This document shows positions 1 to 62,518 of a stretch of DNA of 64,000 nt, one piece after another. The position numbers and the translations under genes are program-made. Source of the DNA: a virus; UHGV virus genome UHGV-0279745; one strand, written 5' to 3'. Within the stretch, counting starts at the first letter, position 1, and each line of letters opens with the position of its first letter. The notes below the pieces were generated by a model that saw only the letters and a program-made list of their open reading frames with translations, was not told the DNA's origin and did no database searches.

Positions 1-180
1 TAGGTTATCTGTTGCACCAGATGTTTCATGTGTCTTTTCAGTTGCTGAAGAAACAGATTGCACCACAGTAGGGTTAGCAAAGTTGGTTTCAATTGGTATC
101 ACTTTTACCCGATCTGTACCACGGGGTTTGTCTTCCGCGACGATACCAATTGAGAAAAAATCAACACTGGATTTCTCCAT
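1..180 (-). CDS. hypothetical protein, 5' part only (continues past window start)
   Basis: ATG at 180..178 on minus strand with AAGGA about 9 nt upstream; 60 codons open to the window edge (MEKSSVDFFSIGIV...). Confidence 0.35.
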   Translation of the reverse strand, partial: MEKSSVDFFSIGIVAEDKPRGTDRVKVIPIETNFANPTVVQSVSSATEKTHETSGATDNL

Positions 181-210
181 CGGGACGTTCCTTAGATCGG
201 AATTGATTTC

Positions 211-231
211 AGATATATATTACTTAAGTGA
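211..231 (+). promoter_or_regulatory. candidate early-type phage promoter element, copy 1 (agatatatattacttaagtga)
   Basis: One of three near-identical AT-rich motifs in the window; followed by a 10-bp-stem hairpin at 234..260. Confidence 0.4.
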
Positions 232-313
232 ATAGGGGCTGAACTGGCACTTCAGCCCCTACGGACACGTTTCATTCGAAACGGATTGATTAAACCATTT
301 GGGGAGACAGATC

Positions 314-457
314 ATGTCTACTAAAAAGAAAGAAAGTCTCAATGAGCTGCTCAAACGGCTTAAAGACTACACTCCATTTAGTACCTGTTATCGGAAGGTA
401 CTAAAATTTTACAGTCTGCCCCTTTATTCTGCTACTCGGGATACCGGTAGGGGGTAG
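314..457 (+). CDS. small lysine-rich hypothetical protein (47 aa)
   Basis: ATG with GGAGA about 6 nt upstream; not in ORF track (under 60 aa); lies in the long leader downstream of promoter copy 1. Confidence 0.25.
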   Translation: MSTKKKESLNELLKRLKDYTPFSTCYRKVLKFYSLPLYSATRDTGRG

Positions 458-601
458 GGGGCATTATGTATACGGATATAAATAGCGGAGGTATACGTAG
501 TATACCGACATACTCTTCCCAGAGGAACGTAGTGACTTCCTTATACCTCTTTTACAATCCATAATAATAGACTCCCCTTTATTGAGATTAGCGAGTAAAT
601 C

Positions 602-1336
602 ATGAGAGAATTATTAGACGATATCTTTACTAACACCAATTTAGAACTTTCTTCTACGGTGGTTAATGAACTAATAGGGCAATCCCAACCTGCTAAGTTA
701 GTCTCTGCTGAAACAATTAAACCCGAAGATTATCCAGACAGTGACGTTATCGACAGCATGGTTGACGAATACACGATAAGCAGTCACGCCAACCGGTTCT
801 TCTTTGTTCTTAATACCGAAACCAGCGTCATTTTATTCTATAAATTGATCAGTGACGCCGAACTTGAAGTCGTAGCGGAACATGTTCGCCTCATTGCCAG
901 CACGCCTACCGTTTCCGATGTTACGTTTATTGGAGGAAGCAGTATGCTGACGCTATACTCTTACTTCCCACTGTTTAGACATGGGGTAGGGTTAATCAAG
1001 CATGTAGAAAACCTTCCCACTGATGTAGAATTAACGTTGCTCGGCCGGGACATCAGTCTTTATCCCTTAAAAGATAACGGTAAGTTATACGGTTTACGTA
1101 TCTATGTTTCTTGGTTAGAGGGATACCGCGTTATTGAACTGATTGCATCAGGCTTAACAAAACAAATCCCAGAGGCGGAAACGATTTCTAAAGCCACTCA
1201 CCTAGTTGAGATTAATCCAGACGATCCGTTTTTACAGTATCACACAGAAAATTCCCTTCGTGGTGTCGCTGCCGTAAAAGGGTGGAGTTGTGCTGAGATT
1301 ACGAAGGGCTATCTGCTGCTAATTAAAACCGCGTAA
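602..1336 (+). CDS. hypothetical protein, tandem paralog family A member 1
   Basis: ORF track; shares N-terminal LDDIF motif with 3166 ORF and the C-terminal GW..G..LL motif of the family. Confidence 0.6.
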   Translation: MRELLDDIFTNTNLELSSTVVNELIGQSQPAKLVSAETIKPEDYPDSDVIDSMVDEYTISSHANRFFFVLNTETSVILFYKLISDAELEVVAEHVRLIASTPTVSDVTFIGGSSMLTLYSYFPLFRHGVGLIKHVENLPTDVELTLLGRDISLYPLKDNGKLYGLRIYVSWLEGYRVIELIASGLTKQIPEAETISKATHLVEINPDDPFLQYHTENSLRGVAAVKGWSCAEITKGYLLLIKTA

Positions 1337-1362
1337 GTAAAAACCTAAAAGGAGAATATATC

Positions 1363-1917
1363 ATGTATCTGACTAAACTGAAAAATGAAATTATCCAATC
1401 CCTTGAAAAAGGTGTAGGTGAACATTTCTTTAACTGTCCCTATACCGTACTGACCAATACCATTATTCAGCCAGGTGCGATGATAGTAGGGGTGAGTGTA
1501 CAAGCTGTGGAGGAAACCCCGCTGCGTCGCAACATCACGCGTAAAACGCATATCCCATTTAGAACGGGCTTTACAGATTACCTTCAGAGCTTACTGAAAG
1601 ATAGCGTTTGGAAAACAGGCAGCTTCTTCCACGATGGGAAGACTTCCACGCTGGTTTATAAAGAGAACACCAAGTATCTGGTTGATTTTCTCTTAGCGCG
1701 TCAATACGATTTCTTTCCATCCCCTTCTGGCACCACCCCTGATAATCCAGGTAAGTTATTAAACCAAGACGAAGCCGAAGCACTCTTTACAAGACTTCGG
1801 AATGAGCACTGCGATGTTGATGACTGGGAAACGTTGATCGCTGTCGCCAAAGTACATGGTTGGTATACTGTACGTAAAATCGGTCAGCAGTTGTTGTTCT
1901 TAGCTTACCCTGCTTAA
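1363..1917 (+). CDS. hypothetical protein, paralog family A member 2
   Basis: ORF track; strong RBS (ctaaaaggag); C-terminal HGWYTVRKIGQQLLFLA motif. Confidence 0.65.
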   Translation: MYLTKLKNEIIQSLEKGVGEHFFNCPYTVLTNTIIQPGAMIVGVSVQAVEETPLRRNITRKTHIPFRTGFTDYLQSLLKDSVWKTGSFFHDGKTSTLVYKENTKYLVDFLLARQYDFFPSPSGTTPDNPGKLLNQDEAEALFTRLRNEHCDVDDWETLIAVAKVHGWYTVRKIGQQLLFLAYPA

Positions 1918-1946
1918 GTAACGAAAAACCCTAAAGGAGAGTAAAA

Positions 1947-3098
1947 ATGCGAAATATTATTTCTAAGCCAGGACATGCCAAGATCCTAAAAGAACTGATG
2001 GACAGATGCTATAATCGGACTTGGTCACTACCAAGCTTAACCATCGAGTCTTCATTACAACGTGAGTTGTTTGGTTATAACTTGGGCTGTTGTGTACTTA
2101 GTGAATACAACCAGGTTATCGCGCCTGTCGATGTCTGTACTTCCGATGAAGAAATTGAAGGTTACCAGTTCACAGCTTACACAAATTGTGGACTAAATTA
2201 CCGTAAACTCGTTGTTAGGGAAATGAGTAGCAACCGGAAGATTATGTTTAAGGTCTTCCCAAGTGGTAAAGTCAGTAATTTATGTTTTCAGCTTGAGAAA
2301 GTGCCCTTTCACGGTGCAGCCATTTTAACTAAACCAGAACTCCTGTTATTAAGCGGGTTAATTGGCTTTGAAGTAAAAACCATCAAAGTTGAGCAGGAAC
2401 TTACACGAAACGATTTCGGCTCAACTTGGTACGAAAGTTTCTTCCGCTACGAAATGTTAAGTGATAAAGCTATCAAACTCACTTACCGTTCTACCGACGA
2501 CATCGTTTACCACATTTTAATTAGCGGCGAACCCCACCAGATTATTGAAGTCGGAGGAGAAAAATCCGTGCGTACCTTAAAAGATGAATTAACTGATTTT
2601 GTTAACAAAATTGATAACGTGGGTATCAGTGAATTATTGTTCCCGATTCAACATCCAGAGCTGCTTGACGAGAAATCTGAAAACGTGGTTATGGGTGTGC
2701 ATTTACTTCCTGACCATCTTGCTATCTACCGTACACTTTCTAAGAATCAACTTAAAGTGTGGTGCCTGTTAAAAGACCTTTTAACAGAGGCGGGGTGGTC
2801 GTGTAGTGTAGATGTTAACTGTGAAGGAGTTGCGTTCTTCATCACAATAGGCAATCGTAGTTTTTCTGTCGATTTACCTACTCGCAGCTATTACAATTTC
2901 TTCCCGACCGCAGAAGGACGTACTGAAAAAGAACCCGCATTACTGCTCAGTGCTGAGGAGTCCAATGCGTTAATGGCGAAACTAAAGGCGAAAGACGAGA
3001 AGCTGGATGCTTTACATCTACCTATAATCGGGAAAGACTACGGTTGGGCTGACGTGCAAAAATACGGCAGTCAGCTGTTGTTTGTTGCTGACCTTTAA
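1947..3098 (+). CDS. hypothetical protein, paralog family A member 3
   Basis: ORF track; RBS ctaaaggag; C-terminal GWADVQKYGSQLLFVA motif. Confidence 0.65.
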   Translation: MRNIISKPGHAKILKELMDRCYNRTWSLPSLTIESSLQRELFGYNLGCCVLSEYNQVIAPVDVCTSDEEIEGYQFTAYTNCGLNYRKLVVREMSSNRKIMFKVFPSGKVSNLCFQLEKVPFHGAAILTKPELLLLSGLIGFEVKTIKVEQELTRNDFGSTWYESFFRYEMLSDKAIKLTYRSTDDIVYHILISGEPHQIIEVGGEKSVRTLKDELTDFVNKIDNVGISELLFPIQHPELLDEKSENVVMGVHLLPDHLAIYRTLSKNQLKVWCLLKDLLTEAGWSCSVDVNCEGVAFFITIGNRSFSVDLPTRSYYNFFPTAEGRTEKEPALLLSAEESNALMAKLKAKDEKLDALHLPIIGKDYGWADVQKYGSQLLFVADL

Positions 3099-3123
3099 TA
3101 AGTGAAACTACACTTTCTCTAAC

Positions 3124-3150
3124 TGCCGCGCTTTAGTCGCGGCTTTTGTT
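3124..3150 (+). terminator. putative intrinsic terminator
   Basis: gccgcg-loop-cgcggc hairpin followed by ttttgtt. Confidence 0.5.
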
Positions 3151-3165
3151 AAGAAGGAAATAGAA

Positions 3166-3939
3166 ATGAAAGTCCATTTAGACGACATCTTTAAAACCGA
3201 ACCGTATATGATCGAAGGTTCGCTAACATCACTACTATTTGCCGATAGATTAGATCGTACGCTGCAATTACAATCGGTCGAATCTGCACCCGTTGATGAT
3301 GTAGAGCGTTACGAGCGCATCAATCATACGCGGGGTGAGTATCGTCGCTATAAGCCAAATTCACTAAGCATCAAGCTCTGGCAAGTGAGCACAGGTAAAG
3401 TATTAACTTATCGCGCTGTCGGTAGTTATTACATTCAACAAGCCAAAGAATGGCTAGAGAAAGTTAAAGAACTGAACTTCGATCTACTGAGCAAAAAACT
3501 GCGCGATCATAACGCCAGTTTGCCGATACGTAATTATTTCTCCACGATTGAAAATAGTCGATGCTTCGTTTCACGTGAAACCACGATATTACCTGGGGCT
3601 GATGTTCAGACGACACTAAAAGATGTGGTTGTGAAGAAAATCTTTCATGAATCTGAACACGTTGGATTTCGTATCTATTTAACGCACAAGAGACCATTTA
3701 CCGTGATTCACGTTGTTACCGCACCCGAAGGCTCAGCGGTTATTCGAGAACTTCCTGATGCTCGAGACCGTTGCCCTAATGAGCCGCTTTATTTAATGTC
3801 AGGAACAAAATCAACCGCGTTGATGTCCCGTTACAGCATGTTAGATGTTGTTGACGCTGCTATGAAACTGGGTTGGAAAGAAGTGCAGCAACATGGTAAA
3901 CAATTGCTGTTTATTGCCGATGTAAAACTTAATCAATAG
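3166..3939 (+). CDS. hypothetical protein, paralog family A member 4
   Basis: ORF track; N-terminal LDDIF and C-terminal LGWKEVQQHGKQLLFIA motifs. Confidence 0.65.
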   Translation: MKVHLDDIFKTEPYMIEGSLTSLLFADRLDRTLQLQSVESAPVDDVERYERINHTRGEYRRYKPNSLSIKLWQVSTGKVLTYRAVGSYYIQQAKEWLEKVKELNFDLLSKKLRDHNASLPIRNYFSTIENSRCFVSRETTILPGADVQTTLKDVVVKKIFHESEHVGFRIYLTHKRPFTVIHVVTAPEGSAVIRELPDARDRCPNEPLYLMSGTKSTALMSRYSMLDVVDAAMKLGWKEVQQHGKQLLFIADVKLNQ

Positions 3940-3951
3940 TGAGGTGGTACC

Positions 3952-4530
3952 GTGTACCGATTAATAGAAATGCGAAAAGACGTTTGGTTGGAAAACCTCG
4001 TCGATGGGGAGCTTGAGGGAATAGAGCTTTCCTTACCAGAAAGAGCGGACACGGTATTGGTCTTTCTGATAAAACAGGCAGCGAAGGAACCGGTAGGAAT
4101 CTTCAGCGTGGACTATAAAGACCCACGAGGGATTCATTTACGGAACATTTGCAGTGGTTTGGAAAGCTTACCGGCTAATCCGTTCTTAAACTACGCAAAA
4201 CGTAAACTCCAGCCAGGGCAACATCTCTGGGTAGTTCTAGCGCCTGATACACGCATTATACGTGACGACCTGACTGCGTTTGTCCAAGCAACGAAAGTCA
4301 GTTTGTACAATCCTAATGCGGATCGTACCGATATGCCGTTTACAATCACCTTAGAAGACGATGGAACGCAAGAGGGTATTGAGGCAATTACGGAATTAGT
4401 AAACTCTTATCCGGTAGCGTCTATTGAGTTAGAAAACCCAAACCGATTACCGTTGGGTGATTTACTCGAATGGATTGAGCTGAATACCGAGTTCCTCATT
4501 AACTCCCGGCAGTACCGGTTCGATGTATAA
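3952..4530 (+). CDS. hypothetical protein
   Basis: ORF track; GTG start with GAGGTGG RBS. Confidence 0.55.
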   Translation: MYRLIEMRKDVWLENLVDGELEGIELSLPERADTVLVFLIKQAAKEPVGIFSVDYKDPRGIHLRNICSGLESLPANPFLNYAKRKLQPGQHLWVVLAPDTRIIRDDLTAFVQATKVSLYNPNADRTDMPFTITLEDDGTQEGIEAITELVNSYPVASIELENPNRLPLGDLLEWIELNTEFLINSRQYRFDV

Positions 4531-4532
4531 CA

Positions 4533-4570
4533 TCGGTGGGGGTAAACCCCCCACCTTTTATTTTTTTGTT
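4533..4570 (+). terminator. intrinsic terminator
   Basis: ggtggggg-taaa-cccccacc hairpin followed by a long T-run. Confidence 0.7.
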
Positions 4571-4592
4571 CGTTAATATTAAAAATAATTTC

Positions 4593-4614
4593 AGATATAT
4601 ATTACCTAGGTGAG
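4593..4614 (+). promoter_or_regulatory. candidate early-type phage promoter element, copy 2 (agatatatattacctaggtgag)
   Basis: Contains TATATTAC; lies between a terminator and the next gene; followed by a gtgagag/ctctcac hairpin (4610..4631). Confidence 0.45.
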
Positions 4615-4660
4615 AGTACAAAAGCTCTCACTTAATAAAACCATTTTAGGAGTATTAAAG

Positions 4661-5032
4661 ATGAAAAACGAATTATTTAAAGACCCGTTTGTTGTATTAA
4701 TGATCGTTACTCGCGCTGCCACTAACCCAGAAAACCTGAAACGTTTACTTACTAACGAAGCATACCTTATCGAACAGCGTGACGCGCAGTTAGCCAAACC
4801 GCACGCTGAAGGCCAGGCGAAAGACCTTATCTCTATTTTCCGTAACGAAGAATGGCGTAAAAACAACGAGCTGTCCGACAACTTGACGGTTGCAATTGCA
4901 AAACTCTTGACACTGTTCAATCTCGACAAAGACATTAACCAAAGCCTTTCTACAGAAGAACGTCTGGAAATGATAAGAGGTATCGGAGATAGTTATACAC
5001 AGATTAAAGCATTCCCCAACACAGTTATTTAA
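4661..5032 (+). CDS. hypothetical early protein, dispersed paralog of the 62129 gene
   Basis: ATG at 4661 with extended RBS ttaggagtattaaag; N-terminus MKNELFKDPFVVLMI identical to the 62129 ORF; first 44 coding nt identical. Confidence 0.7.
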   Translation: MKNELFKDPFVVLMIVTRAATNPENLKRLLTNEAYLIEQRDAQLAKPHAEGQAKDLISIFRNEEWRKNNELSDNLTVAIAKLLTLFNLDKDINQSLSTEERLEMIRGIGDSYTQIKAFPNTVI

Positions 5033-5078
5033 TTTCATAATTTGTGGGAATTTCCCCATAACCCGAAGGAGCATTTCA

Positions 5079-5540
5079 ATGAAAACCTTTATCACATTCT
5101 TAATAACCATTTTAACTTTCGGCCTCAATAGCGCACACGCCGCTATCAACAGCTGGGAACAAATACAAAACCCTGGGCAGGCAGTTTACGAAATCGAGGA
5201 CACCGCCGGAAACGGACTGTCTATCAACTGTGACACAGAAACTGCGAATCGCAAATTTTACGGTCGCATGGTTTGGTATTACGGTGAACCCGTAGGTGCA
5301 ACTAACGCGGAAGATAACACGATGGATATTGTCGTAAACGGCAAAACCTATAACATCCCTACCGTGGACGGTAGTGACAAAGCAGAACACGCTTGGGTTG
5401 CTTTCGTTAAAGCTATCGGTAATGCCAAAACTTTCAGTGTGAGTATCAATGGTAACGATGCCGCTAACTTTACCGTAGAAGGCGAACGTCTGTCTGAAAC
5501 TTTCTTCCAAAACTGTGGACACACCCGTCCTAACAAATAA
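5079..5540 (+). CDS. small secreted protein (predicted signal peptide)
   Basis: ORF track; hydrophobic N-terminus ending AHA; Cys residues. Confidence 0.65.
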   Translation: MKTFITFLITILTFGLNSAHAAINSWEQIQNPGQAVYEIEDTAGNGLSINCDTETANRKFYGRMVWYYGEPVGATNAEDNTMDIVVNGKTYNIPTVDGSDKAEHAWVAFVKAIGNAKTFSVSINGNDAANFTVEGERLSETFFQNCGHTRPNK

Positions 5541-5568
5541 CTATTAGTCTTTTTTAGAGTGCGTGAAA

Positions 5569-5955
5569 ATGAATATCAGAACTATACTTTATACCATCAT
5601 TATTTTCTGTGCGGTCGGAATTACTGGCACTTATGCTTTCGGTGATTCAGATGTCCGTTATTACGAACCGGCTCCTGACTCACCGATTATCAACCCGGAT
5701 GAGACGCCTACGTTAATGCGCAGTTTCGGTAAACTACAAGTTTATCGTTTAGTGCGTGGTGAAACGTGTACGGGATTACTCATTGCTGACACCCGTGCAC
5801 AAGTCTACCAACGTCTGACGGATATCGCCTGCGAACAACCAAAAGTCATGTCAGTTAGTATCCATCCGCTATCAGTTGGTAACTATACCGCTGTGGACTT
5901 CTTTCACAACGCCGAATTAATCGGACGTGTTACCTTAAATCGCCCTGCTGAATAA
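5569..5955 (+). CDS. small exported or membrane protein
   Basis: ORF track (5563 GTG alternative start); hydrophobic N-terminal segment. Confidence 0.5.
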   Translation: MNIRTILYTIIIFCAVGITGTYAFGDSDVRYYEPAPDSPIINPDETPTLMRSFGKLQVYRLVRGETCTGLLIADTRAQVYQRLTDIACEQPKVMSVSIHPLSVGNYTAVDFFHNAELIGRVTLNRPAE

Positions 5956-5973
5956 TCTAAAGGAGTAGTTATA

Positions 5974-6459
5974 ATGAAACGTTTACACACATTGATGTTC
6001 TTTCTGGTTTTCTTGTTTATCGGTGTCACGCCAACTGTAGATGCGGCCTCCGTAGACGAATTGCTTACCTGCGATGGAAACGCTTGGGAAGGTCAGCCAA
6101 ATGCGTGCCCAAACATCAACGACTTGTACGATACCGATAAGTCGTTTAAAGCCGTTGTTGATAAAACATTAGACCCTGTGGGACTGGATGGTATGTTCGG
6201 CTCTAAAGGTTACATGGATGGCCCTGGTGGTAACATGTATCCGGTAAACATCAACAACAAAATCTGGATTGAAAGTGGCGGTTGTAAAGCTAACGCTTGT
6301 GGTTGGGAATACATCGTAACGCTATACAACCCACACACCAAGAAACTCGTCGGCTATTACTACAACATCGACCCCGGTTATCTGATTTGGTTCGGTGATA
6401 TCGGTGTTGCCGAATTCGCTTACCTGGTTAAGAAATACGTAGAACAATCTAAATACTAA
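5974..6459 (+). CDS. small secreted cysteine-containing protein
   Basis: ORF track; signal peptide ending VDA; strong RBS ctaaaggag; multiple Cys. Confidence 0.65.
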   Translation: MKRLHTLMFFLVFLFIGVTPTVDAASVDELLTCDGNAWEGQPNACPNINDLYDTDKSFKAVVDKTLDPVGLDGMFGSKGYMDGPGGNMYPVNINNKIWIESGGCKANACGWEYIVTLYNPHTKKLVGYYYNIDPGYLIWFGDIGVAEFAYLVKKYVEQSKY

Positions 6460-6470
6460 GGACTTTTATC

Positions 6471-6881
6471 ATGAAAACTATCATCAATACTCTTCTCATT
6501 GCAATGGCTGTTCTGTTCTCTGTCAACGCTACAGCAAAAACAATACAGTTGCCAGACAATATTAAGTACGTCAATAGTACCGATGATTTCTATTGTACGG
6601 AAATTGACGGGTTGTACTGCCAGGCGAAAAGCCTGTTTAAATACAAAGGTAGCAGATACGTATTCATCGTTGAGCAAGGTGGTGCCTGGTGCTACGACAG
6701 CCCAATGTCCGTACTCAACCTCGAAACGTGGAAGGCTCAGCGTCTCGAATACAACGACAAACGTCTGTGCTCTGGTAATAACAAACCATTCTTCGAAGTC
6801 GTAGATGGTGTGCCAATGGTAGGGATATTAGACACTTCGGAAAAACCTATCGTTGTAGCTATGGATAAACTTAAAATTTAA
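6471..6881 (+). CDS. small secreted cysteine-containing protein
   Basis: ORF track; signal peptide ending ATA; 5 Cys. Confidence 0.65.
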   Translation: MKTIINTLLIAMAVLFSVNATAKTIQLPDNIKYVNSTDDFYCTEIDGLYCQAKSLFKYKGSRYVFIVEQGGAWCYDSPMSVLNLETWKAQRLEYNDKRLCSGNNKPFFEVVDGVPMVGILDTSEKPIVVAMDKLKI

Positions 6882-6891
6882 GGAGTAACTC

Positions 6892-7281
6892 ATGCGTCTC
6901 GTCTGCGTTTTAGCATTCTTCTTCTCCCTGAGTGTAGCAGCATCTACTCAAGTTAACGATTTACTGCTAACCCCAAACAACAATACCGATTACCAGTACA
7001 ATCCTCCGGGGTTTGAAGTTTGTGAAGTCGGTGAAACAATCTGCCAAGAAGTCGGCGCAGACGGGCGCTATATTCTGGTAAAAGCTGATGGTGGCACAAT
7101 GTGTCCCGCAGGTTATTACTTTCTGCTCGATTCCGTCGCAAGAGAGGTTCTTCCTATCACCACGAAAACGTGCGACCCTACCGTTGTCTTAACTCTCGCT
7201 AAAAGCAAATCTCGCGACCGTTATCTGATCGTTATCGAAGAACGGGGCAAGATGGCTGGTGCTATCGAATTAGATCATTGA
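6892..7281 (+). CDS. small secreted cysteine-containing protein
   Basis: ORF track; signal peptide ending AAS; 4 Cys. Confidence 0.65.
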   Translation: MRLVCVLAFFFSLSVAASTQVNDLLLTPNNNTDYQYNPPGFEVCEVGETICQEVGADGRYILVKADGGTMCPAGYYFLLDSVAREVLPITTKTCDPTVVLTLAKSKSRDRYLIVIEERGKMAGAIELDH

Positions 7282-7289
7282 GTGTAGTC

Positions 7290-7320
7290 TTGGCCCCGAT
7301 ACGTTCGGGGTCCTTTTTAC
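7290..7320 (+). terminator. intrinsic terminator
   Basis: ggccccga/tcggggtcc hairpin plus T-run. Confidence 0.6.
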
Positions 7321-7347
7321 GACATGTTTACCTAAAGGAGTATTAAA

Positions 7348-7824
7348 ATGCAATTATCTAACGTTTACCAAGCTGCGCAATTTCATCATGACCTGTCGGC
7401 TAAACCTGAACAAATTCGCCACAACTTAACGGTGGCCTGGAAACTGCTGCGTATCGCCGAAGCCTCGCGCCTTAACGATCAGTCGACGATTATCGAAACG
7501 GTGCGCACACTACATCCAGTCGACCTGGAAACAATCTGGACCTTTGATTTAACCCGAATTTATCACCGTCGTTTTAATGCGGCAGTTGATGCGATCCGTC
7601 CTTACTTTCACCACCTGCGGACAACACGCGAAAATGACACTGCACTTGAATGGGTATTGGTACAAAGCGTATGGAGCGACTACATTTATCTCCTTTCTTT
7701 AGAGACGGGTGAATGTATCGTTGCTAACGAAGTTTTTTCAAGTAACGCAGAAATGTATCGTTCCTTCGCGACGATTAAAGGTGAAACACAACCTATTTTA
7801 TCACTCACGCACTTAGGGCTGTAA
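7348..7824 (+). CDS. hypothetical protein
   Basis: ORF track; RBS cctaaaggagtattaaaatg. Confidence 0.65.
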   Translation: MQLSNVYQAAQFHHDLSAKPEQIRHNLTVAWKLLRIAEASRLNDQSTIIETVRTLHPVDLETIWTFDLTRIYHRRFNAAVDAIRPYFHHLRTTRENDTALEWVLVQSVWSDYIYLLSLETGECIVANEVFSSNAEMYRSFATIKGETQPILSLTHLGL

Positions 7825-7827
7825 TTA

Positions 7828-7861
7828 GCCCGGCCCCGTTTACTCGGGGCTTCTTTTTTTG
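7828..7861 (+). terminator. intrinsic terminator
   Basis: gccccg/cggggc hairpin plus T8. Confidence 0.65.
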
Positions 7862-7880
7862 ATCTAAAAGGAAAGACCAG

Positions 7881-8489
7881 ATGAACGAAATTACATTAGT
7901 TCGTTTTCTTGAAGCGATGCAAAATGCAGAGCGCTTTTCGCATACGCCTTTATTCATTGACTTAATGGAAGAAGAAGTAGAGGGATTCCTGGCATACCCT
8001 CGCTTACGGGAATATTTTAAACGTAAAACACCGACTGCTTACGAAAAGTTGGTTTACGCGCTTGAGAACAGTACAACATTGTTAACGTCACCTTTTAAGG
8101 CGTTGGAGGCTTTAGACCCGGCTGGTACCACAAGTATCCCACAACGTGTCGTGTTCTACTATATCGACCACGATCGAATCAAAGCCGATGTTGTTAACTG
8201 GATCTCTGAAAACGCAGTTCCTGAAACACGCACTTTTAATCTCTGTCCTGTAGAAGAAGGGTGGAAGGTCGGTAGCCACTATTCTTACCCGTACCAATCC
8301 ATTAAATCGCCGTTTTTATACCCGGTTTATCTGGATGACGTTACACCTGGAAATTGTATCCCGGTAACAAATCTGATCTGTACATTGACGATGGAAGTCT
8401 TAGCCACAAAGGCGGGACAGGTTTGGGTAGAAAACACGAAGAACGTCGATTATTGGACTTCAATGGGTTATCACCTGTACACCAAATAA
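7881..8489 (+). CDS. hypothetical protein
   Basis: ORF track; RBS aaaggaaaga. Confidence 0.65.
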   Translation: MNEITLVRFLEAMQNAERFSHTPLFIDLMEEEVEGFLAYPRLREYFKRKTPTAYEKLVYALENSTTLLTSPFKALEALDPAGTTSIPQRVVFYYIDHDRIKADVVNWISENAVPETRTFNLCPVEEGWKVGSHYSYPYQSIKSPFLYPVYLDDVTPGNCIPVTNLICTLTMEVLATKAGQVWVENTKNVDYWTSMGYHLYTK

Positions 8490-22068: not shown

Positions 22069-22730
22069 TCGTTTATAGTGAGGTCTTGTCAAAAGCCCCC
22101 CGGTTTTTACAAACTCACTTTATGTATAACGCACGGCAGTATTGGGGCTTTAAAGCCCCTTACTCCGAAGATTGGGAAGTTGTGGAAAAGTTAGCATTTG
22201 TGTTTTCTCTTTCGTTGTTGTGGGAGATCATTGCACTATACAACGCGGGTTGTGATATCCCGGAGAACGGCTTTTTCCAACAACACCTATTCCAAAAATT
22301 CACAGCATCGGTAGAAAATCATGAAGTGCGCAAGGAGTGTATCGGCTACGCAGAGCATTCTGAAGAATTGAGAAAGATTTCCAAATTAGTTATCACGCGG
22401 ACATGGGCTGAATTCGAAACTTACCCCGAAAAAATAATTTGGTTTAATCGTGAACAGTTTATTAAAGAGGCAGTCAGTCAACATCCCGTTCGACTAATCG
22501 TGTTAAAGCCGTCAGATCTCGCCTTACGCCACATCTATTCGTCTCCAGAGGAAATCGTTTTTTCCTCTGGAACAACAGATTATGGTATTTTTAAACAAGG
22601 CGATTCTTGGATTCTTCCACACGATTTAGACGGGTATTTGCTCAGTAGCGATCAAATACATTCGGGTTATGACTCACAGGTGAAGGAGTTTACAGTCGAT
22701 CCTTTTTTCGCTAAAAATATTCTTAGATAG
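22062..22730 (+). CDS. hypothetical protein
   Basis: ORF track; start overlaps upstream stop (ATGCTGA). Confidence 0.55.
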   Translation: MLIVYSEVLSKAPRFLQTHFMYNARQYWGFKAPYSEDWEVVEKLAFVFSLSLLWEIIALYNAGCDIPENGFFQQHLFQKFTASVENHEVRKECIGYAEHSEELRKISKLVITRTWAEFETYPEKIIWFNREQFIKEAVSQHPVRLIVLKPSDLALRHIYSSPEEIVFSSGTTDYGIFKQGDSWILPHDLDGYLLSSDQIHSGYDSQVKEFTVDPFFAKNILR

Positions 22731-22745
22731 ATATTATCCAGGTGT
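22726..22745 (+). promoter_or_regulatory. candidate promoter-like element, variant class (agatagatattatccaggtg)
   Basis: AGATATTATC core upstream of the 22767 gene. Confidence 0.25.
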
Positions 22746-31811: not shown

Positions 31812-31844
31812 TCTTACTACCTCAATTTCAAAAAGAAGTCAGAC

Positions 31845-31862
31845 AGATATTATCTACGTGAG
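31845..31862 (+). promoter_or_regulatory. candidate promoter-like element, variant class (agatattatctacgtgag)
   Basis: In the divergent intergenic region, about 20 nt upstream of the RBS of the 31883 gene. Confidence 0.3.
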
Positions 31863-52832: not shown

Positions 52833-55800
52833 ATGCTGCTCATTAAACAGTTTAACCAACGCTTCTCGGTGCGTAAAACTGACGAGTTTGGTAATCCGAG
52901 GATTATCCCGCTCGAGAAGCTACAGATACCACGTGGTTCTGTACTCCATGTCATTGATCTCGACCAGGTGGTATTAGCGCCACCTGCAACACTCGAGATT
53001 ATTCAACCGTTAGAAAAACCTGCACAGGTTCGTCACCACTTTAAATTACCGGAAGACGGTATTAGCGGTCATCCGCGCAACAAACCTGTTCAGGGGCAAG
53101 AACGTGCTATCTTTGCTTACCACCGTGCAAACCGCCCGATGCGTCGTCTTACCTCAGACGATCTGGTTCGCAAAGACTTAAAAGTTCTCCTGGTCGAGAA
53201 CTACACACCGATGCTATCGCACTACTACTATCCTGACACCCAGTTAGCCTGGTACGATAGACTGCGTAACATCCAACTGTTGATGATTAACCAGTTCAAA
53301 TACGACACGCAAGAATACATGCGTCAGAACTATTTCGTTATTGAACTGGGTTCGACTCTACCTTCGTTCCAGAAGTTTCAAACAACCTATAACGACCGCG
53401 TTAAGAGCAAGATTGAGAAGTTCCAGGACTTCAACTTGCTGTGGTTATTGGAGTTGTTTGCTTGGGCTTATGGAAAACAATCCGATTCCCTATTCTCGGG
53501 AATGGATTTAACTCAGCTGTCACGAATGAACTTTATCTTCACCCACAACACGGGCTTTACGTCCATGAACATGGGTGTTGTAGAGAAAATGCGTAAGTCG
53601 TCCGGCGGTCGTTTAAGTGATGACCAAATGGCCAGGATGTTCTACCGTACGCTGGTGCGTGTAATGACACAAGCACCGTCTAACGCGTACGAAGCTGAAT
53701 TCCTAACGCCTGAAGGCGACGAGCGTGTTTTCCTTAAAGACGTCGAAGAAGAAACCGTTGATGTTGTCGACGATGACGATGTTGTTAATGACGCTGTGGT
53801 GGAATCCGATAACACCTTCGATGAAAAAGAAGACGTTGTTATTGAAGAACCGAAGGAAGACGTCAAACCGACGACCATCGTCGTCGAGAAAGTCATTCCA
53901 CATGACGAGATTATTAAACAGGAAGCACAACGCTTAGCTGAAGCGGGCCGCTTAAGTTCTAAAGCATATCAGTTCCTGTCAGAATCGTCTAAACGTTTCG
54001 TTCAGCTACCTAACCCGTATAACCCGAAAGAAACCTACGGGGAAGCACTGACTGTTCACGAGAAAGATATTGTCGTTAAAGCCGAACCGAAAAAAGTTCA
54101 GCGGCTTGTTACCGATGAAGGGTGGGCAGAGAACGTCACCGACCAGATGGTGAAACAATACAACCAGACCATGATGACCAAAGACGTACTGGCGGCGGTC
54201 GCCAGTTCACAACGTTTGGGTCTGGCGGTTCACAACCACACGGTGGAAAAAGAAGTTTCTGTTACAGGAACTATCGAGCACCACACTTTACGTGTTCAGC
54301 CAGTCGGTGGTGAGCCAACAACCGTTCGCTTCTCTATCCCAGGCTTGACCGAGGACGGTACTTGGGTCGCTAATGGTGTCGAATACACCATGCGTCGCCA
54401 ACGTGTGGACTTACCGATTCGTAAAGTTGCACCGGATACTGTCGCACTGACTACCGCTTACGGTAAAAACTTTGTCCGTCGTAGTGATAAGGTCGCGAAC
54501 GATTACGGTCGTTGGTTAACCAACGCGATTATCACACGCGCTGTTGACCCAACAAACACCGAAGTCACCGATGCACGTTTAGCAAATGTGTTCGATCCTA
54601 CGCAACATCTGCCTCGTCAGTATACGGAGATTGCACGCCGTATTGCCAGCTTTAATGCGAACGGCTATATGTGGAACTTCGACTACAAAGAAGCCGTTAA
54701 CTTCTTTAACGACGAGCAACTCAGAGACGCCGATGCTGCCAAACTTCTGCCAGTGGCGAAACGTCCGCGTAGTGAAACAATCCTGGCAATGGATGACAAA
54801 TCCATGCTTTACGGTGTGAACGGAAACAAAGTTGAACCGGTGGGGACTATCGCAGAGGTACTGGGCTTTAATAACCAGAAAGTGCCTCGCGAAATGACCG
54901 AGCTGTCTTTGATGGGTAAATCTTTGTCGCTTGGTTTTATCTTCTCGTTCTATCTTGGACTCCAGGGAATGTTGAAACATTTCGGTATCCAGTACGAGTT
55001 GGTTCCTACAGGACAGCGTGTTGATAAGAATGCCTACGACAGTATTATTCGACTACAAGACTGTAAACTTTTAGTTACTTGCGATAACGATCAGCAGAGG
55101 ATGATTCTGCATGGTTTGGATCGCTATCTCAAACACCTGGTTGCTTATACCGAATCAGAAGCAGACCGCGAAGACATTTACCTGAACTTATTACGTGAAG
55201 CAGATGGCCTAACGCCACGGTACATCAACGAGCTGAAACAGATGCGGTCCGCGTTTGTTGACGACATGCACGCACGTATCCTCAGGAAAATGGGTGAGCC
55301 GGAAACCTTTATTGGCTTGCTGGAACGTTCTAACGAACTGTTACAAACCGACCACTCTTTACCAGAGATTAACGGCGATGAAATGATGTTCTTAGGAAAT
55401 CAGAGGATTGCCTACCACATCTATACTGCGATGGTCAGAGCGATGCGTAACTACAATAACGCACCGGGCAGTAACCGTAAGTTCGAACTGACGCAAGATA
55501 TGGTTTGGGGTGCTATTAACTCCGACCCGTCGGTACTTTTGGCACCAGGCGCTAACCCTATCCAGTCAATTAAAGAAAAAGACGTTATTACGATGGGGGG
55601 TACAGGTGGTCGTAATCGTAAAACGATGGTCTACCACACACGTGAGTTCCAACCCAGTGATATCGGGATAGTCTCGGGTAACACCGTAGATAACGGCGAC
55701 GTAGGGATTACTGCTTTCGTCACCAATAACCCACGTTTTGACACCGTTGACGGTACTACGTTTAAGCGTGAAGAGAAAACCCCGAAACCGAGCGATACCC

Positions 55801-56999
55801 TTTCGTTTATTGACGGGTTAGTACCCGATACGTTAATGGACGATGCAAAACGTCAAAACTTCGTTGGGATTCAGTTAGGTTCTGCCACCAGTTGTAATGG
55901 GGCAACCACAACCCCGTATCGTACTGAACAGGAGAAATTCGTCGCTCACCGTACTTCGGTGAAACATGCACGCGTTATTGATAAAGCAGGTAAGATTACT
56001 GGTCTGTCGAAAGACCACATTGAAATTACGTACGAAGATGGAAGTAAAGAAGCCTTTCCTCTAGGGCGCTGGTTCGGCCCCCACGAAGGTACCTTCTATC
56101 CGCACACCTTGGTAACACGCTGGAAAGCCGGTGACAAGCTCCCGGCCGGAGCAGTGATTACGTACAACGAGCAACACTTTGAACCTGATATTTACGATCC
56201 TACTCAGGTTTCCTGGAAAAACGGGGTGCTGGCCACCGTTGCTTTATTAGAAGCTGAAGAAGTTATCGAAGACTCCAACGCAATTTCTGAACGGTTCGCG
56301 AAGAAAATGGTGGGGCAGGTAACAAAGCTGAAAGAAGTGACGATTAACAGCAACCAGATGCTTTTGGAAATCGTGAATGAGGGCGACCACGTAGACGTCG
56401 ATACAATCCTATGCACGTTTACTGACGACTTGACGGGCGATATGAGTGCCTTTAGTCAGGAAGCAGCCGCAACGTTGCAAAGTTTAAGTTCGTACGCACC
56501 TCGTGCAGGGGTACGTGGTATCGTGGATAAAATCGAAGTGGTGTATCACGGTGAAACCGAAGACATGACACCAAGCCTTGCTGAACTGGTGCGTAAATAC
56601 GACAGAATTCGTCGTAAAGCCGCACTGGCAGTCGGACGTGGTGATCCGGTTTCAGGCAGTGTAAACGGCGACTACCGTGTCGAAGGTGTACCCTTGGCCT
56701 TTAACTCACTTTGTGTTCGATTCTTTATTACACACGACGTTGAGATGGCCGCTGCGGATAAGATGGTTATTGCTAACCAGCTAAAAACCACCGTACAAGA
56801 AGTCATGTACGGCGACAACAAAACAGAGGATGGCGATGACCTGGACGTGTTGTTCGGTCGCGATTCCGTCGATGCGCGTATCGTAGGTTCAATCCAACGT
56901 ATCGGTACCGCGAATGCTGTAGGTGAACAAGCCGGGATTCTCATCGGGCGTATACTCGATGGGGAGGCTGTGCCTGATTTACCCGCGACACTTAAATAA
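52833..56999 (+). CDS. large hypothetical protein (1388 aa), possibly a further RNAP subunit or virion protein
   Basis: ORF track; immediately downstream of the beta-prime-like gene; no motif recognised with confidence. Confidence 0.7.
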   Translation: MLLIKQFNQRFSVRKTDEFGNPRIIPLEKLQIPRGSVLHVIDLDQVVLAPPATLEIIQPLEKPAQVRHHFKLPEDGISGHPRNKPVQGQERAIFAYHRANRPMRRLTSDDLVRKDLKVLLVENYTPMLSHYYYPDTQLAWYDRLRNIQLLMINQFKYDTQEYMRQNYFVIELGSTLPSFQKFQTTYNDRVKSKIEKFQDFNLLWLLELFAWAYGKQSDSLFSGMDLTQLSRMNFIFTHNTGFTSMNMGVVEKMRKSSGGRLSDDQMARMFYRTLVRVMTQAPSNAYEAEFLTPEGDERVFLKDVEEETVDVVDDDDVVNDAVVESDNTFDEKEDVVIEEPKEDVKPTTIVVEKVIPHDEIIKQEAQRLAEAGRLSSKAYQFLSESSKRFVQLPNPYNPKETYGEALTVHEKDIVVKAEPKKVQRLVTDEGWAENVTDQMVKQYNQTMMTKDVLAAVASSQRLGLAVHNHTVEKEVSVTGTIEHHTLRVQPVGGEPTTVRFSIPGLTEDGTWVANGVEYTMRRQRVDLPIRKVAPDTVALTTAYGKNFVRRSDKVANDYGRWLTNAIITRAVDPTNTEVTDARLANVFDPTQHLPRQYTEIARRIASFNANGYMWNFDYKEAVNFFNDEQLRDADAAKLLPVAKRPRSETILAMDDKSMLYGVNGNKVEPVGTIAEVLGFNNQKVPREMTELSLMGKSLSLGFIFSFYLGLQGMLKHFGIQYELVPTGQRVDKNAYDSIIRLQDCKLLVTCDNDQQRMILHGLDRYLKHLVAYTESEADREDIYLNLLREADGLTPRYINELKQMRSAFVDDMHARILRKMGEPETFIGLLERSNELLQTDHSLPEINGDEMMFLGNQRIAYHIYTAMVRAMRNYNNAPGSNRKFELTQDMVWGAINSDPSVLLAPGANPIQSIKEKDVITMGGTGGRNRKTMVYHTREFQPSDIGIVSGNTVDNGDVGITAFVTNNPRFDTVDGTTFKREEKTPKPSDTLSFIDGLVPDTLMDDAKRQNFVGIQLGSATSCNGATTTPYRTEQEKFVAHRTSVKHARVIDKAGKITGLSKDHIEITYEDGSKEAFPLGRWFGPHEGTFYPHTLVTRWKAGDKLPAGAVITYNEQHFEPDIYDPTQVSWKNGVLATVALLEAEEVIEDSNAISERFAKKMVGQVTKLKEVTINSNQMLLEIVNEGDHVDVDTILCTFTDDLTGDMSAFSQEAAATLQSLSSYAPRAGVRGIVDKIEVVYHGETEDMTPSLAELVRKYDRIRRKAALAVGRGDPVSGSVNGDYRVEGVPLAFNSLCVRFFITHDVEMAAADKMVIANQLKTTVQEVMYGDNKTEDGDDLDVLFGRDSVDARIVGSIQRIGTANAVGEQAGILIGRILDGEAVPDLPATLK

Positions 57000-58797: not shown

Positions 58798-58815
58798 CGC
58801 GCTTAGGAGGTGATC

Positions 58816-59544
58816 GTGAGTGCGATTGAAACAGCCCGTCGTGACCCTACTAAGGTTCATGCGGACTTGGTAAATAACGGCACGGTCACCACTACCAAAG
58901 GGGGATGTTACATTTACATCCCCGTTGGGTTTGTGGCGAAAGAGTTGGCGGTTATTTCTTCTACGGTAACAATTGTAGGGATCTTTGCGATTTCTACCGA
59001 CCGTAAAACATATGGGGTGTCCAGCGTTACAACGCTTATGGAGATTACCCCAACGGCGTTTGAAGAGATCGACGTCTTTGGTGTTCCTTATTACGAATTT
59101 CGTTTTGATCCCGGTACAGTGGTTTTCCCCAACCGCAATTTACAGGTGTTGTCTCACCCTATTTACAACATTGCGTCGTATATTTACGACTTTGGTAATC
59201 GTCCTTTCTGGTTTACTGCAGCGGATGATGCTGAACTCTTGGCACCTGATAAAGTCAAGAAATGGAACGGTTTTACTGTATTTGCCGATCAGATTACCGC
59301 TGACGTTTACGCAGCACACACACAGCGTAAAGTAGGTGATCCGAGAACGTTCTTCCGTTACACGCTGAAGAAAGATAGCGATCTTAACAACCCTGTGCAG
59401 TTTATTCCATTGCGCAGTGGTTCACTTAACAAAACGTCGAGACTGGCGAAGCTTGCGGACGTGGAACTTAAACGTGGTATTCGTTCTGCGCTACAGGTTG
59501 ACCCGGTGCGTGCCGAACCGCTCGAAGATTTGTTTATGAGGTAA
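58816..59544 (+). CDS. hypothetical protein
   Basis: GTG 58816 with AGGAGG RBS (58810 GTG is too close to the RBS). Confidence 0.55.
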   Translation: MSAIETARRDPTKVHADLVNNGTVTTTKGGCYIYIPVGFVAKELAVISSTVTIVGIFAISTDRKTYGVSSVTTLMEITPTAFEEIDVFGVPYYEFRFDPGTVVFPNRNLQVLSHPIYNIASYIYDFGNRPFWFTAADDAELLAPDKVKKWNGFTVFADQITADVYAAHTQRKVGDPRTFFRYTLKKDSDLNNPVQFIPLRSGSLNKTSRLAKLADVELKRGIRSALQVDPVRAEPLEDLFMR

Positions 59545-61992: not shown

Positions 61993-62036
61993 CGGCTAGT
62001 CTATTCATCGAATAGACTAGCCCACCTTTATTTTAA
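61993..62036 (+). terminator. intrinsic terminator
   Basis: gctagtctattc-atcg-gaatagactagc 12-bp stem plus T-run. Confidence 0.7.
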
Positions 62037-62055: not shown

Positions 62056-62077
62056 AGATATATTTTACTTAGGTGAG
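62056..62077 (+). promoter_or_regulatory. candidate early-type phage promoter element, copy 3 (agatatattttacttaggtgag)
   Basis: Same motif and same terminator-promoter-gene arrangement as copy 2. Confidence 0.4.
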
Positions 62078-62128
62078 CGTTGTAGAATTACACGCTATTC
62101 GACTGTTTAACCTAAAGGAGTATTAAGA

Positions 62129-62518
62129 ATGAAAAACGAATTATTTAAAGACCCGTTTGTTGTATTAATGATTTCTACTCGTGCTATCACACGTCAAGAT
62201 GACCTGGAACGATTAATTACAGATGAAACTTATCTGTGCGAGCAACGTGACAAACTACTGAACAAAGAATGTTCTTGTGAAGATATCGGTCCTCTAGTGA
62301 CTATCGTCCATAACCCAGAGTGGCGTAGAAACAACGAATTGTCTGATATCTTGAGTGTTTCGCTTGCAAAACTGGCAATGTTGTTCTCTCTCGATAAAGA
62401 CCTTAAACAATGTCTTACTACGCCAGAGCGCATCAAAATGTTTGAAGGCATTCGGGAATCAGTTAAACAAATTAACGCTATCAAAAGCAATTGGATACTC
62501 TCTAGCGTAGGTAGCTAA
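62129..62518 (+). CDS. hypothetical early protein, dispersed paralog of the 4661 gene
   Basis: RBS cctaaaggagtattaaga; first 44 nt of CDS identical to 4661..4704; protein similar along full length. Confidence 0.7.
   Translation: MKNELFKDPFVVLMISTRAITRQDDLERLITDETYLCEQRDKLLNKECSCEDIGPLVTIVHNPEWRRNNELSDILSVSLAKLAMLFSLDKDLKQCLTTPERIKMFEGIRESVKQINAIKSNWILSSVGS

Follow-up and report, generated by a model that had tools for sequence, protein, structure and literature searches.

Repeated elements in an uncultured jumbo phage genome resemble phiKZ early promoters and carry a hairpin at the predicted transcript start

The 64,000-nucleotide stretch of the virus genome UHGV-0279745 analysed here (the window) contains three near-identical AT-rich motifs, each followed by a stem-loop. 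What would such a composite element do? We believe that the repeats are very probably early-gene promoters of a phiKZ-like jumbo phage, and that the motif is most likely read by the virion-packaged multisubunit RNA polymerase (virion RNA polymerase, vRNAP) of the phage itself. For the explanation as a whole, in which an early vRNAP promoter is joined to a hairpin at position +1 with a role in the leader, we estimate a probability of roughly 0.8. The element would span ~45 nt and consist of an A/T-rich upstream block ATTAAAAAWAATTTC, a core AGATATATATTAC, and then CTAGG and TGAG, with transcription starting at or beside the G of TGA (230, 4612 and 62075 in the three copies). Each copy would head an operon that runs rightward and consists of small genes without known function, and an intrinsic terminator would insulate copies 2 and 3 from the operon upstream. 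The promoter features are as follows; the scores are those of a position-weight matrix (PWM) built from copies of the motif in the IMG/VR database.

211..234, plus strand: core of promoter copy 1, AGATATATATTACTTAAGTGAATAG, with TATATTAC at 216-223, predicted +1 at G230, PWM score 46.9
4568..4592, plus strand: A/T-rich upstream promoter element of copy 2, ATTAAAAATAATTTC, at about –44 to –20, conserved across copies
4593..4616, plus strand: core of promoter copy 2, AGATATATATTACCTAGGTGAGAG, with TATATTAC at 4598-4605, predicted +1 at G4612, PWM score 72.3
62056..62079, plus strand: core of promoter copy 3, AGATATATTTTACTTAGGTGAGCG, with one core mismatch, predicted +1 at G62075, PWM score 54.0

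The pattern AGATATAT[A/T]TTACYTARGTGA was found at 211, 4593 and 62056, always on the plus strand, with 0 occurrences expected by chance. A scan of the window with AGATATATATTACYTARGTGA, allowing up to 3 mismatches, returned exactly three matches, all on the plus strand, with no mismatch at 211-231 and 4593-4613 and one at 62056-62076, compared to a mean of 0.00 in 100 dinucleotide-preserving shuffles. The initial annotation, which had described three near-identical plus-strand motifs, was confirmed in this respect. The 8-mer TATATTAC by itself was not enriched in the window (2 found vs 1.85 expected); it is present in copies 1 and 2, and copy 3 has TATTTTAC instead. Because the 8-mer alone is not over-represented, the signal is the extended conserved block of ~45 nt. 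Copy 2 is the closest of the three to the consensus of the clade described below, and its upstream element corresponds to the aTTTaAa block of phiKZ early promoters at equal spacing. When the whole window was scanned with the PWM, five sites were found, all on the plus strand, with a best minus-strand score of –10.6 and everything else below –13.

The phage from which the window derives appears to encode a polymerase suited to such promoters. Three of its genes are homologous to vRNAP subunit genes of Salmonella phage SPN3US:

51204..52823, plus strand: homologue of the vRNAP beta'-N subunit, 86% identical to SPN3US gp240
52833..56999, plus strand: homologue of the vRNAP beta-N subunit, 76% identical to SPN3US gp241
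58810..59544, plus strand: homologue of the vRNAP beta'-C subunit, 86% identical to SPN3US gp244

The product of the open reading frame (ORF) at 52833-56999 is also 82% identical to the RNAP beta-like protein of the Erwinia phages Stratton, phiEaH2 and Asesino. In SPN3US, gp240, gp241 and gp244 are head-associated vRNAP subunits (PMC5105663), and the gene order of the window parallels that of SPN3US from ~162 kb to 225 kb. On the basis of the RNAP subunit homology and the SPN3US gene order, we assign the window to an uncultured jumbo phage of the Chimalliviridae (phiKZ-like, nucleus-forming), within the enterobacterial clade of SPN3US and the Erwinia phages. Close uncultured relatives in IMG/VR are UViG_3300029126_000001 (225 kb, ~96% identical) and 3300045988_113438 (83-94% identical); the IMG/VR contig of 225 kb at ~96% identity is referred to below as L036.

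In the complete genome of phiKZ, TATATTAC occurs 33 times on the plus strand and 9 times on the minus strand, and the extended pattern TATATTAC-N5-TG occurs 23 times on the plus strand and never on the minus strand. The plus-strand sites share the context tATT.aAa...aTTTaAaa..TATATTACaaa..TG and are intergenic, ahead of genes. The 23 sites agree with the 28-32 early promoters reported for phiKZ, which have an AT-rich element near –10 and are read by the vRNAP (PMC7598289, PMC8244752, PMC10914365). One of them precedes gp54, for which differential RNA sequencing identified an early-promoter primary transcription start site (PMC8244752). The phiKZ consensus aTTTaAaa..TATATTACaaa..TG and the clade consensus AATTTCAGATATATATTACYTAGGTGAG have ATTT-N6-core-N5-TG in common, and the geometry in the window, ATTT-N6-TATATTAC-N5-TG, is that of phiKZ. 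The earlier suggestion that the core matches the phiKZ early-promoter consensus was thus right, and we regard the window motif and the phiKZ early-promoter element as homologous, judging from core and spacing.

An AT-rich motif centred near –10 lies upstream of early operons in every RNAP-encoding jumbo phage; it is the early-promoter consensus wherever transcripts have been profiled, and the vRNAP must read it (PMC7598289). The elements in the window are like phiKZ early promoters in their core TATATTAC, in the spacing to the downstream TG (N5) and the upstream ATTT (N6), in being strand-specific, intergenic and placed ahead of operons of small genes, and in that the phage encodes a virion multisubunit RNAP. 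They differ in that the invariant block is longer here, with AGATA before the core and CTAGGTGAG after it (~25 nearly invariant positions), and is identical across Seoulvirus, Machinavirus, the phiEaH2 group and the uncultured clade. There are also fewer copies per genome (9 in SPN3US). The element has every defining feature of Chimalliviridae early promoters that can be examined in sequence, and by these features we place it in that known class.

Could the host polymerase read the element instead? TATATT matches the sigma-70 –10 box TATAAT at 5/6 positions, and the A/T-rich upstream region is like an UP element, so that bacterial RNAP might act on it at the start of infection. However, a consensus scan gave no sigma-70 site overlapping 211, 4593 or 62056; no –35 hexamer lies 16-18 nt away, a TG extension is lacking, and TATATT is the only –10-like feature. 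About 25 further invariant positions (AGATA..., ...ACYTAGGTGAG) would be unread by sigma-70. The core and spacing instead fit the early promoters of phiKZ, the transcription of which is independent of host RNAP (PMC7598289; PMC13282480). We therefore consider a host sigma-70 promoter highly improbable.

The vRNAP-type early promoter is further supported by the distribution of the motif in other genomes. Megablast of window positions 1-8000 against 50,697 GenBank phage records matched only the promoter stretch (~4553-4628), in 47 jumbo phages of Salmonella, Erwinia, Escherichia and Proteus, with flanks devoid of DNA similarity; apart from the promoter, neither this search nor blastn of positions 380-605 gave a DNA match. 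The motif is letter-identical in SPN3US, phiEaH2, Huxley and ~20 IMG/VR jumbo-phage contigs, and in Salmonella phage SPFM4 and Erwinia phage Huxley TTTCAGATATATATTACCTAGGTGAGA is flanked by a terminator and the following gene. When IMG/VR was scanned for the exact pattern, 55 copies were found at 53 loci on ~20 contigs, mostly of 208-246 kb, with a single strand used per contig. The consensus from 54 distinct aligned copies is (G)ATTAAAAAWAATTTC-AGATATATATTACYTAGGTGAG, followed by a variable hairpin, the leader and a Shine-Dalgarno (SD) sequence. Among 53 distinct copies, 50 are succeeded on the same strand by an SD and by an ORF of 35 codons or more with its start codon; the predicted 5' untranslated region (UTR) has a median length of 51.5 nt, mostly 44-65 nt, and a T-rich tract lies upstream of 29. 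Full-text literature searches with the motif strings found no paper, and TATATTAC alone gave irrelevant matches only.

The PWM built from the IMG/VR copies was used to scan the complete SPN3US genome. All nine sites (scores 15-66) were intergenic, on the plus strand and co-oriented with the downstream gene, upstream of gp5, 22, 55, 66, 76, 101, 135, 180 and 249; the best minus-strand score was –7.6. The scores in SPN3US and in the window indicate that the motif is not scattered through coding sequence, an outcome that the initial annotation had named as one that would speak against promoters.

Two of the five PWM sites in the window are divergent variants with lower scores:

22725..22745, plus strand: divergent variant AGATAGATATTATCCAGGTGT, followed 21 nt later by an ATG (22767), without hairpin, PWM score 17.2
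31841..31861, plus strand: divergent variant AGACAGATATTATCTACGTGA, followed 21 nt later by an ATG (31883), PWM score 8.9

These sites lie within or beside blocks of larger genes. Together with the small number of sites in SPN3US, they would be compatible with a middle or late promoter rather than an early one. The middle promoters of phiKZ, however, have a weak AT-rich motif at –24 and its late promoters have TATG at the start site (PMC7598289), both unlike the element, while the early core TATATTAC-N5-TG is alike. Moreover, the strong copies head small genes of unknown function, not virion genes, and the vRNAP and tail-fibre genes of the window carry no copy. Middle or late promoters are thus very unlikely in our estimation, and we retain the early assignment.

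The variant sites form a second divergent motif class (AGAYAGATATTATC..GTG), found at 22725-22745 and 31841-31861 in the window and at 4427, 15614 and 72486 in SPN3US. Both copies in the window stand 21 nt ahead of an ATG and have no leader hairpin. This class may represent a weaker promoter or one with different timing; for the site at 22725 in particular, a promoter of lower strength or of another class is possible. SPN3US gp22, which lies behind a variant site, was considered as a chimallin and dropped (BLASTP against phiKZ gp54, E 0.69; no Pfam hit).

We next turn to the stem-loops. The initial annotation had placed one after each copy, the third being weak, and all three were found:

233..261, plus strand: copy-1 leader hairpin, 11 bp, 7-nt loop, –18.5 kcal/mol, z –5.1, starting 3 nt after the predicted +1
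4610..4631, plus strand: copy-2 leader hairpin GTGAGAGT/GCTCTCAC, 8-9 bp over 4609/4610-4631/4632, 6-nt loop, –13.2 kcal/mol, z –5.4
62076..62096, plus strand: copy-3 leader hairpin AGCGT.GTA/TAC.ACGCT, weak, bulged stem of 5+3 bp, –7.4 kcal/mol, z –2.1

The stem begins 0, 1 or 3 nt past the predicted +1 in the window copies, and the 5' arm of the copy-2 hairpin is the conserved initial transcribed sequence. For 48 distinct copies, we folded the 34 nt starting from GTGA and compared them with the adjacent downstream control window. The mean minimum free energy was –7.6 kcal/mol, compared to –1.7 kcal/mol for the control window (Wilcoxon p 5e-9), with a median z of –2.1 against dinucleotide shuffles and 54% of the copies below –2. 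When near-identical leaders were collapsed to 33 non-redundant classes and folded from the predicted +1, 26 folded at –3 kcal/mol or below and 22 at –5 kcal/mol or below; the stem started at the predicted +1 in 20 of the 26. Swapping the 5' and 3' halves between copies raised the mean from –6.9 to –3.2 kcal/mol, and 12% of the chimeras reached the median of the real leaders. Each 3' arm therefore fits its own 5' arm, rather than all arms sharing a common palindrome. At stem position +5 the pair types are G-C (11 copies), U-A (4) and A-U (2), and the loops range from 3 to 11 nt.

Among the orthologues of copy 1 (3 distinct sequences), all 11 pairs are kept, 100% paired, while the loop varies freely. 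Two of the 11 pairs show compensatory double changes (G-C to A-U and C-G to U-A), a number equalled in 60 of 500 shuffles, so that the covariation with three sequences is illustrative and not significant. The 33 non-redundant copies, the arm swap and the compensatory changes in orthologues together support the earlier proposal that structure rather than sequence is selected. The hairpin is a general, selected feature of the SPN3US/Erwinia clade. In phiKZ, promoter leaders had a mean of –2.1 kcal/mol, and 6 of 33 folded at –5 kcal/mol or below. Since phiKZ early promoters are mostly without a hairpin, whereas one at +1 is usual here, the hairpin is a feature of the enterobacterial clade; the lower G+C of phiKZ contributes to this difference.

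Phage N4 likewise delivers an RNAP with its virion and has early promoters that come with an inverted repeat. In N4, however, the hairpin is found upstream of +1 (about –17 to –5), its loop is 3 nt long, and the hairpin itself is what a single-subunit vRNAP recognises. Here the repeat lies 3' of the conserved core, the loops are 3-11 nt and the vRNAP is multisubunit, and these differences rule out a hairpin promoter of the N4 type.

What, then, might the hairpin do? The first 20-30 nt of the transcript would form a stem-loop in which the 5' arm is the conserved GAGAG... and the 3' arm has co-evolved to pair with it, giving the early mRNAs a base-paired 5' end. In E. coli, RppH and RNase E need an unpaired 5' end, and the ompA 5' stem-loop and the T7 phi10 leader protect the message. 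The paired 5' end may shield early mRNAs from such 5'-end-dependent decay (RppH/RNase E) in the same way, and stabilisation of early mRNAs is the likeliest role for the hairpin, although we give it somewhat less than an even chance. As in ompA-type stem-loops, few or no 5' nucleotides would be unpaired, and structure is conserved while sequence is not; unlike them, the hairpin here recurs at many promoters within a single genome and is joined to the conserved +1 region of the promoter.

The arrangement at T7 phi10 is closer in several respects. T7 has the initial transcribed sequence GGGAGA, and its gene 10 leader contains the stretch TTTGTTTAACTTTAAGAAGGAGATATACATATG. In both systems a phage-polymerase promoter has a conserved part that reaches into the initial transcribed sequence (GTGAGAG here), a stem-loop forms from the first ~20 nt, and a TTAAC-type 'epsilon'-like stretch and a strong SD follow (TGTTTAACCTAAAGGAGTATTAAGAATG vs TTTGTTTAACTTTAAGAAGGAGATATACATATG). 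The T7 enzyme is a single-subunit RNAP, in contrast to the split beta/beta' enzyme here, and the likeness is architectural, with no common descent implied. The three leaders of the window (62104-62131, 288-316 and 4636-4663) hold TTAACC or AAACCATTT, then AAGGAG; the copy-3 leader TGTTTAACCTAAAGGAGTATTAAGAATG (62104-62131) is very similar to the leader of T7 gene 10 with its 'epsilon' translational enhancer, and other clade members have CGACTATCAAGGAG at the corresponding place.

The inverted repeat might also act as DNA, either as an operator at which a dimeric phage regulator turns early transcription off or as a cruciform that aids promoter opening. It overlaps the predicted +1, which is the classic operator position, and the half-site GAGAGTTAA/TTAACTCTC is common to many copies. 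Yet the stem sequences differ widely (GAGATTGC, GAGCATTGA, GATAGA, GAGGAT, AGGGGCTGAA), the arms are 3-11 nt apart, and the 3' arm tracks the 5' arm, which points to base pairing and not to a fixed dimer site. We consider a function as DNA unlikely.

Another candidate role is that of a signal to the transcription, export or translation machinery, such as a nut- or put-like antitermination site, a weak attenuator or a tag for exit from the vesicle of early infection. The lambda nut and HK022 put sites are promoter-proximal, as the hairpin is here. Terminator-like hairpins are present inside the operons (for instance at 3125-3143), and the SPN3US copy at 165687 has a hairpin followed by a canonical terminator. 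Antitermination and short RNAs derived from 5' UTRs have been suggested for phage 201phi2-1 (PMC11512511), and the route by which early mRNAs exit the vesicle of early phage infection (EPI) is an open question (PMC13282480). On the other hand, specific contact with a protein or the polymerase is unlikely because neither the sequence nor the length of the loop is conserved, the hairpins of the window would be poor terminators because their stems are short and AT-rich and lack a U-tract, and phiKZ also uses a vesicle, yet mostly without a hairpin. An intrinsic attenuator was in fact ruled out for the window hairpins by the absent U-tract and the weak AT-rich stems. Because stems, loops and arm spacing all vary, the operator, the nut/put site or attenuator and the export tag are all less likely than stabilisation; the signalling role is improbable, if marginally less so than the operator.

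In SPN3US (165687-165790), the counterpart of copy 2 is separated from gp180 by the usual hairpin and, behind it, a canonical terminator made up of the GC-rich GGCTACCTTCGGGTAGCC and a T-run. This pairing of hairpin and terminator could be an attenuator or a source of a short early RNA.

The surroundings of the copies in the window include the following features:

4535..4565, plus strand: intrinsic terminator closing the operon upstream of copy 2, 8-bp GC stem and T-run
4632..4660, plus strand: rest of the copy-2 5' UTR, including AACCATTTT and the Shine-Dalgarno sequence AGGAG at 4648-4652
4661..5032, plus strand: first gene of the copy-2 unit, 123 aa, phrog_27024, paralogue of 62129-62518
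61994..62030, plus strand: terminator-like stem-loop ahead of copy 3, 13-bp stem at 61994-62022, weaker T-rich tail
62129..62518, plus strand: first gene of the copy-3 unit, 129 aa, phrog_27024, paralogue of 4661-5032

The terminators that had been predicted before copies 2 and 3 are present, the former as GGTGGGGGTAAACCCCCCACC followed by TTTTATTTTT (4535-4555, with a T-run) and the latter at 61994-62022 with its weaker tail. Copy 1 lies in a divergent intergenic region, in which a minus-strand ORF starts at 180, and has no terminator upstream. The paralogous genes expected ~50 nt downstream of copies 2 and 3 were also found: the distance from motif to ATG is 48 nt (ATG at 4661) and 53 nt (ATG at 62129), and the products are 55% identical (E 2e-46). 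At the position of the gene at 62129-62518, SPN3US has gp249, which is preceded by a promoter copy of its own. None of the genes downstream of the promoters could be assigned a function with Pfam or PHROGs, phrog_27024 being a family of unknown function. A terminator-like hairpin (GCCGCGC...GCGCGGC plus TTTTG) at 3125-3143 lies inside the copy-1 operon, between the ORFs at 1947-3098 and 3166-3939.

Comparison with close relatives revealed an indel at the edge of the promoter. In BLASTN alignments, three IMG/VR relatives (L047, L028 and L042) match the window as far as 4617, where the core ends, and again from 5059-5066. Positions 4618-5058 of the window, which hold the hairpin, the leader and the paralogue gene, are absent from them; the same promoter with a different hairpin directly serves a homologue of the ORF at 5079-5540. 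A second indel, at 272-373 relative to L036, begins 10 nt past the copy-1 hairpin. In two further relatives (L035 and L029), a different promoter has the same hairpin and UTR as copy 2. Copies 2 and 3 are identical over the SD and the first 44 nt of the coding sequence (4648-4704 and 62116-62172), with the rest of the genes ~60% identical, which suggests either gene conversion or selection on the translation-initiation region. Both paralogues have TTT in the window where both orthologues in relatives have TTC; gene conversion is therefore suggested.

Being near-identical at many loci and across phage genera, the module would have a likely secondary role as a crossover point for the exchange of early-gene cassettes. 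Similar exchange is known for the promoter-early stem-loop elements (PeSLs) of T4-like phages, modules of a terminator and an early promoter between small accessory genes (PMC2839356, PMC4122927). The composite of terminator and promoter is seen at copies 2 and 3 and not at copy 1, and in one clean case, too few for a rule, an indel between close relatives has its junction at the module. PeSLs, in contrast, consist of sigma-70 early promoters with the stem-loop as upstream terminator, whereas the promoters here would be of the vRNAP type with a second hairpin downstream of the start. The lack of a sigma-70 match and the placement of the phage in the Chimalliviridae exclude a PeSL in the strict sense.

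Taken further, the repeat might be chiefly a recombination or mobile module, with its promoter likeness incidental. Near-identical copies of ~45 nt in different genera with flanks that lack DNA similarity, the indel junction at the promoter edge and the mosaic leaders would all be expected of such a module. Its strict orientation, the distance of 44-65 nt to the SD or start in most copies and the homology to phiKZ promoters (PMC8244752) argue against it, as does the lack of a transposase, a target-site duplication or a terminal repeat with the copies. It is more plausible that recombination is a side effect of the promoter being repeated, as with the PeSLs of T4-type phages (PMC4122927), and we allow a primarily mobile element the slightest of chances.

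Several observations weigh against early vRNAP promoters with a selected leader hairpin, or limit how far that explanation reaches. The +1 positions are taken from spacing homology with phiKZ alone, and we likewise infer the early timing of the motif transcripts; data on start sites, timing or polymerase dependence in phages of the SPN3US/Erwinia clade were not found in the searchable literature. Nine sites in SPN3US, compared to 28-32 early promoters in phiKZ, mean that either the motif marks only a subset of early promoters or the matrix overlooks variant sites. Among the non-redundant copies, roughly one in four has no hairpin or a weak one, the copy-3 hairpin is marginal (z –2.1), and many copies are related by descent, so that the hairpin statistics overstate independence. 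RNAalifold on an ungapped alignment of 18 leaders found no pairs, because loop lengths differ and the 3' arms fall out of register. Finally, the recombination role draws on a single clean junction.

These findings do not overturn current understanding; the widespread covarying +1 hairpin in the clade and the promoter-edge indel are modest extensions beyond the searchable literature. Early promoters of nucleus-forming jumbo phages mark the genes of the first minutes of infection in the early-infection vesicle, including those for takeover and anti-defence, and they are the only handle for driving engineered genes in such phages; the phiKZ consensus early promoter has already been used in this way (PMC12676376). 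The ~45-nt clade consensus allows direct annotation of early operons in dozens of cultured and uncultured genomes and predicts the start site to within 1-2 nt. The +1 hairpin offers a testable hypothesis on the stabilisation of early mRNAs, and the promoter-edge indel hints at how the fast-evolving early-gene repertoire is shuffled.

More tentatively, early promoter, 5' hairpin and standard leader may have been fused in the enterobacterial branch of nucleus-forming jumbo phages into a portable expression cassette with two effects, an idea that we put forward as rather unlikely in this full form. If it holds, the transcripts of the vRNAP, made in the early-infection vesicle without coupled translation, would receive a base-paired 5' end, and the hairpin would help early mRNAs to survive the 5'-end-dependent RNases of the host, or to be recognised as early messages of the phage, after export. 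The ~45-nt core, letter-identical across phages of Salmonella, Erwinia and Escherichia and uncultured phages, would at the same time be a shared crossover site for swapping and duplicating early accessory genes between phages.

Copy 1 is distinguished by what follows its hairpin:

262..601, plus strand: long structured leader, which holds a ~132-nt ultraconserved block at ~420-551

What comes after copy 1 is no conserved gene but a structured leader of 372 nt (–114.2 kcal/mol, z –4.5). The 47-codon ORF at 314-457, considered as the gene served by copy 1, is frameshifted in the relative L046 by a 2-nt deletion, has lost its start in L036 and is replaced by unrelated sequence in L067, and is probably not a gene. 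Between the window, L036, L046 and L067, identity over the block at 420-551 is essentially 100%, compared to 75-96% over the flanking coding DNA. It gave no match in Rfam, in the tRNA search with ARAGORN or in the phage database; at gathering thresholds Rfam was negative for the whole window, and at E≤1 it was negative for 200-660. The block is either non-coding or contains an upstream ORF. It contains TAGGGGG twice, three GTATAC palindromes and a long-range pairing of GAGGTATA with TATACCTC. A 32-codon ORF that begins with the ATG at 467 shares its frame with the ORF at 602-1336, and in L067 the two are fused.

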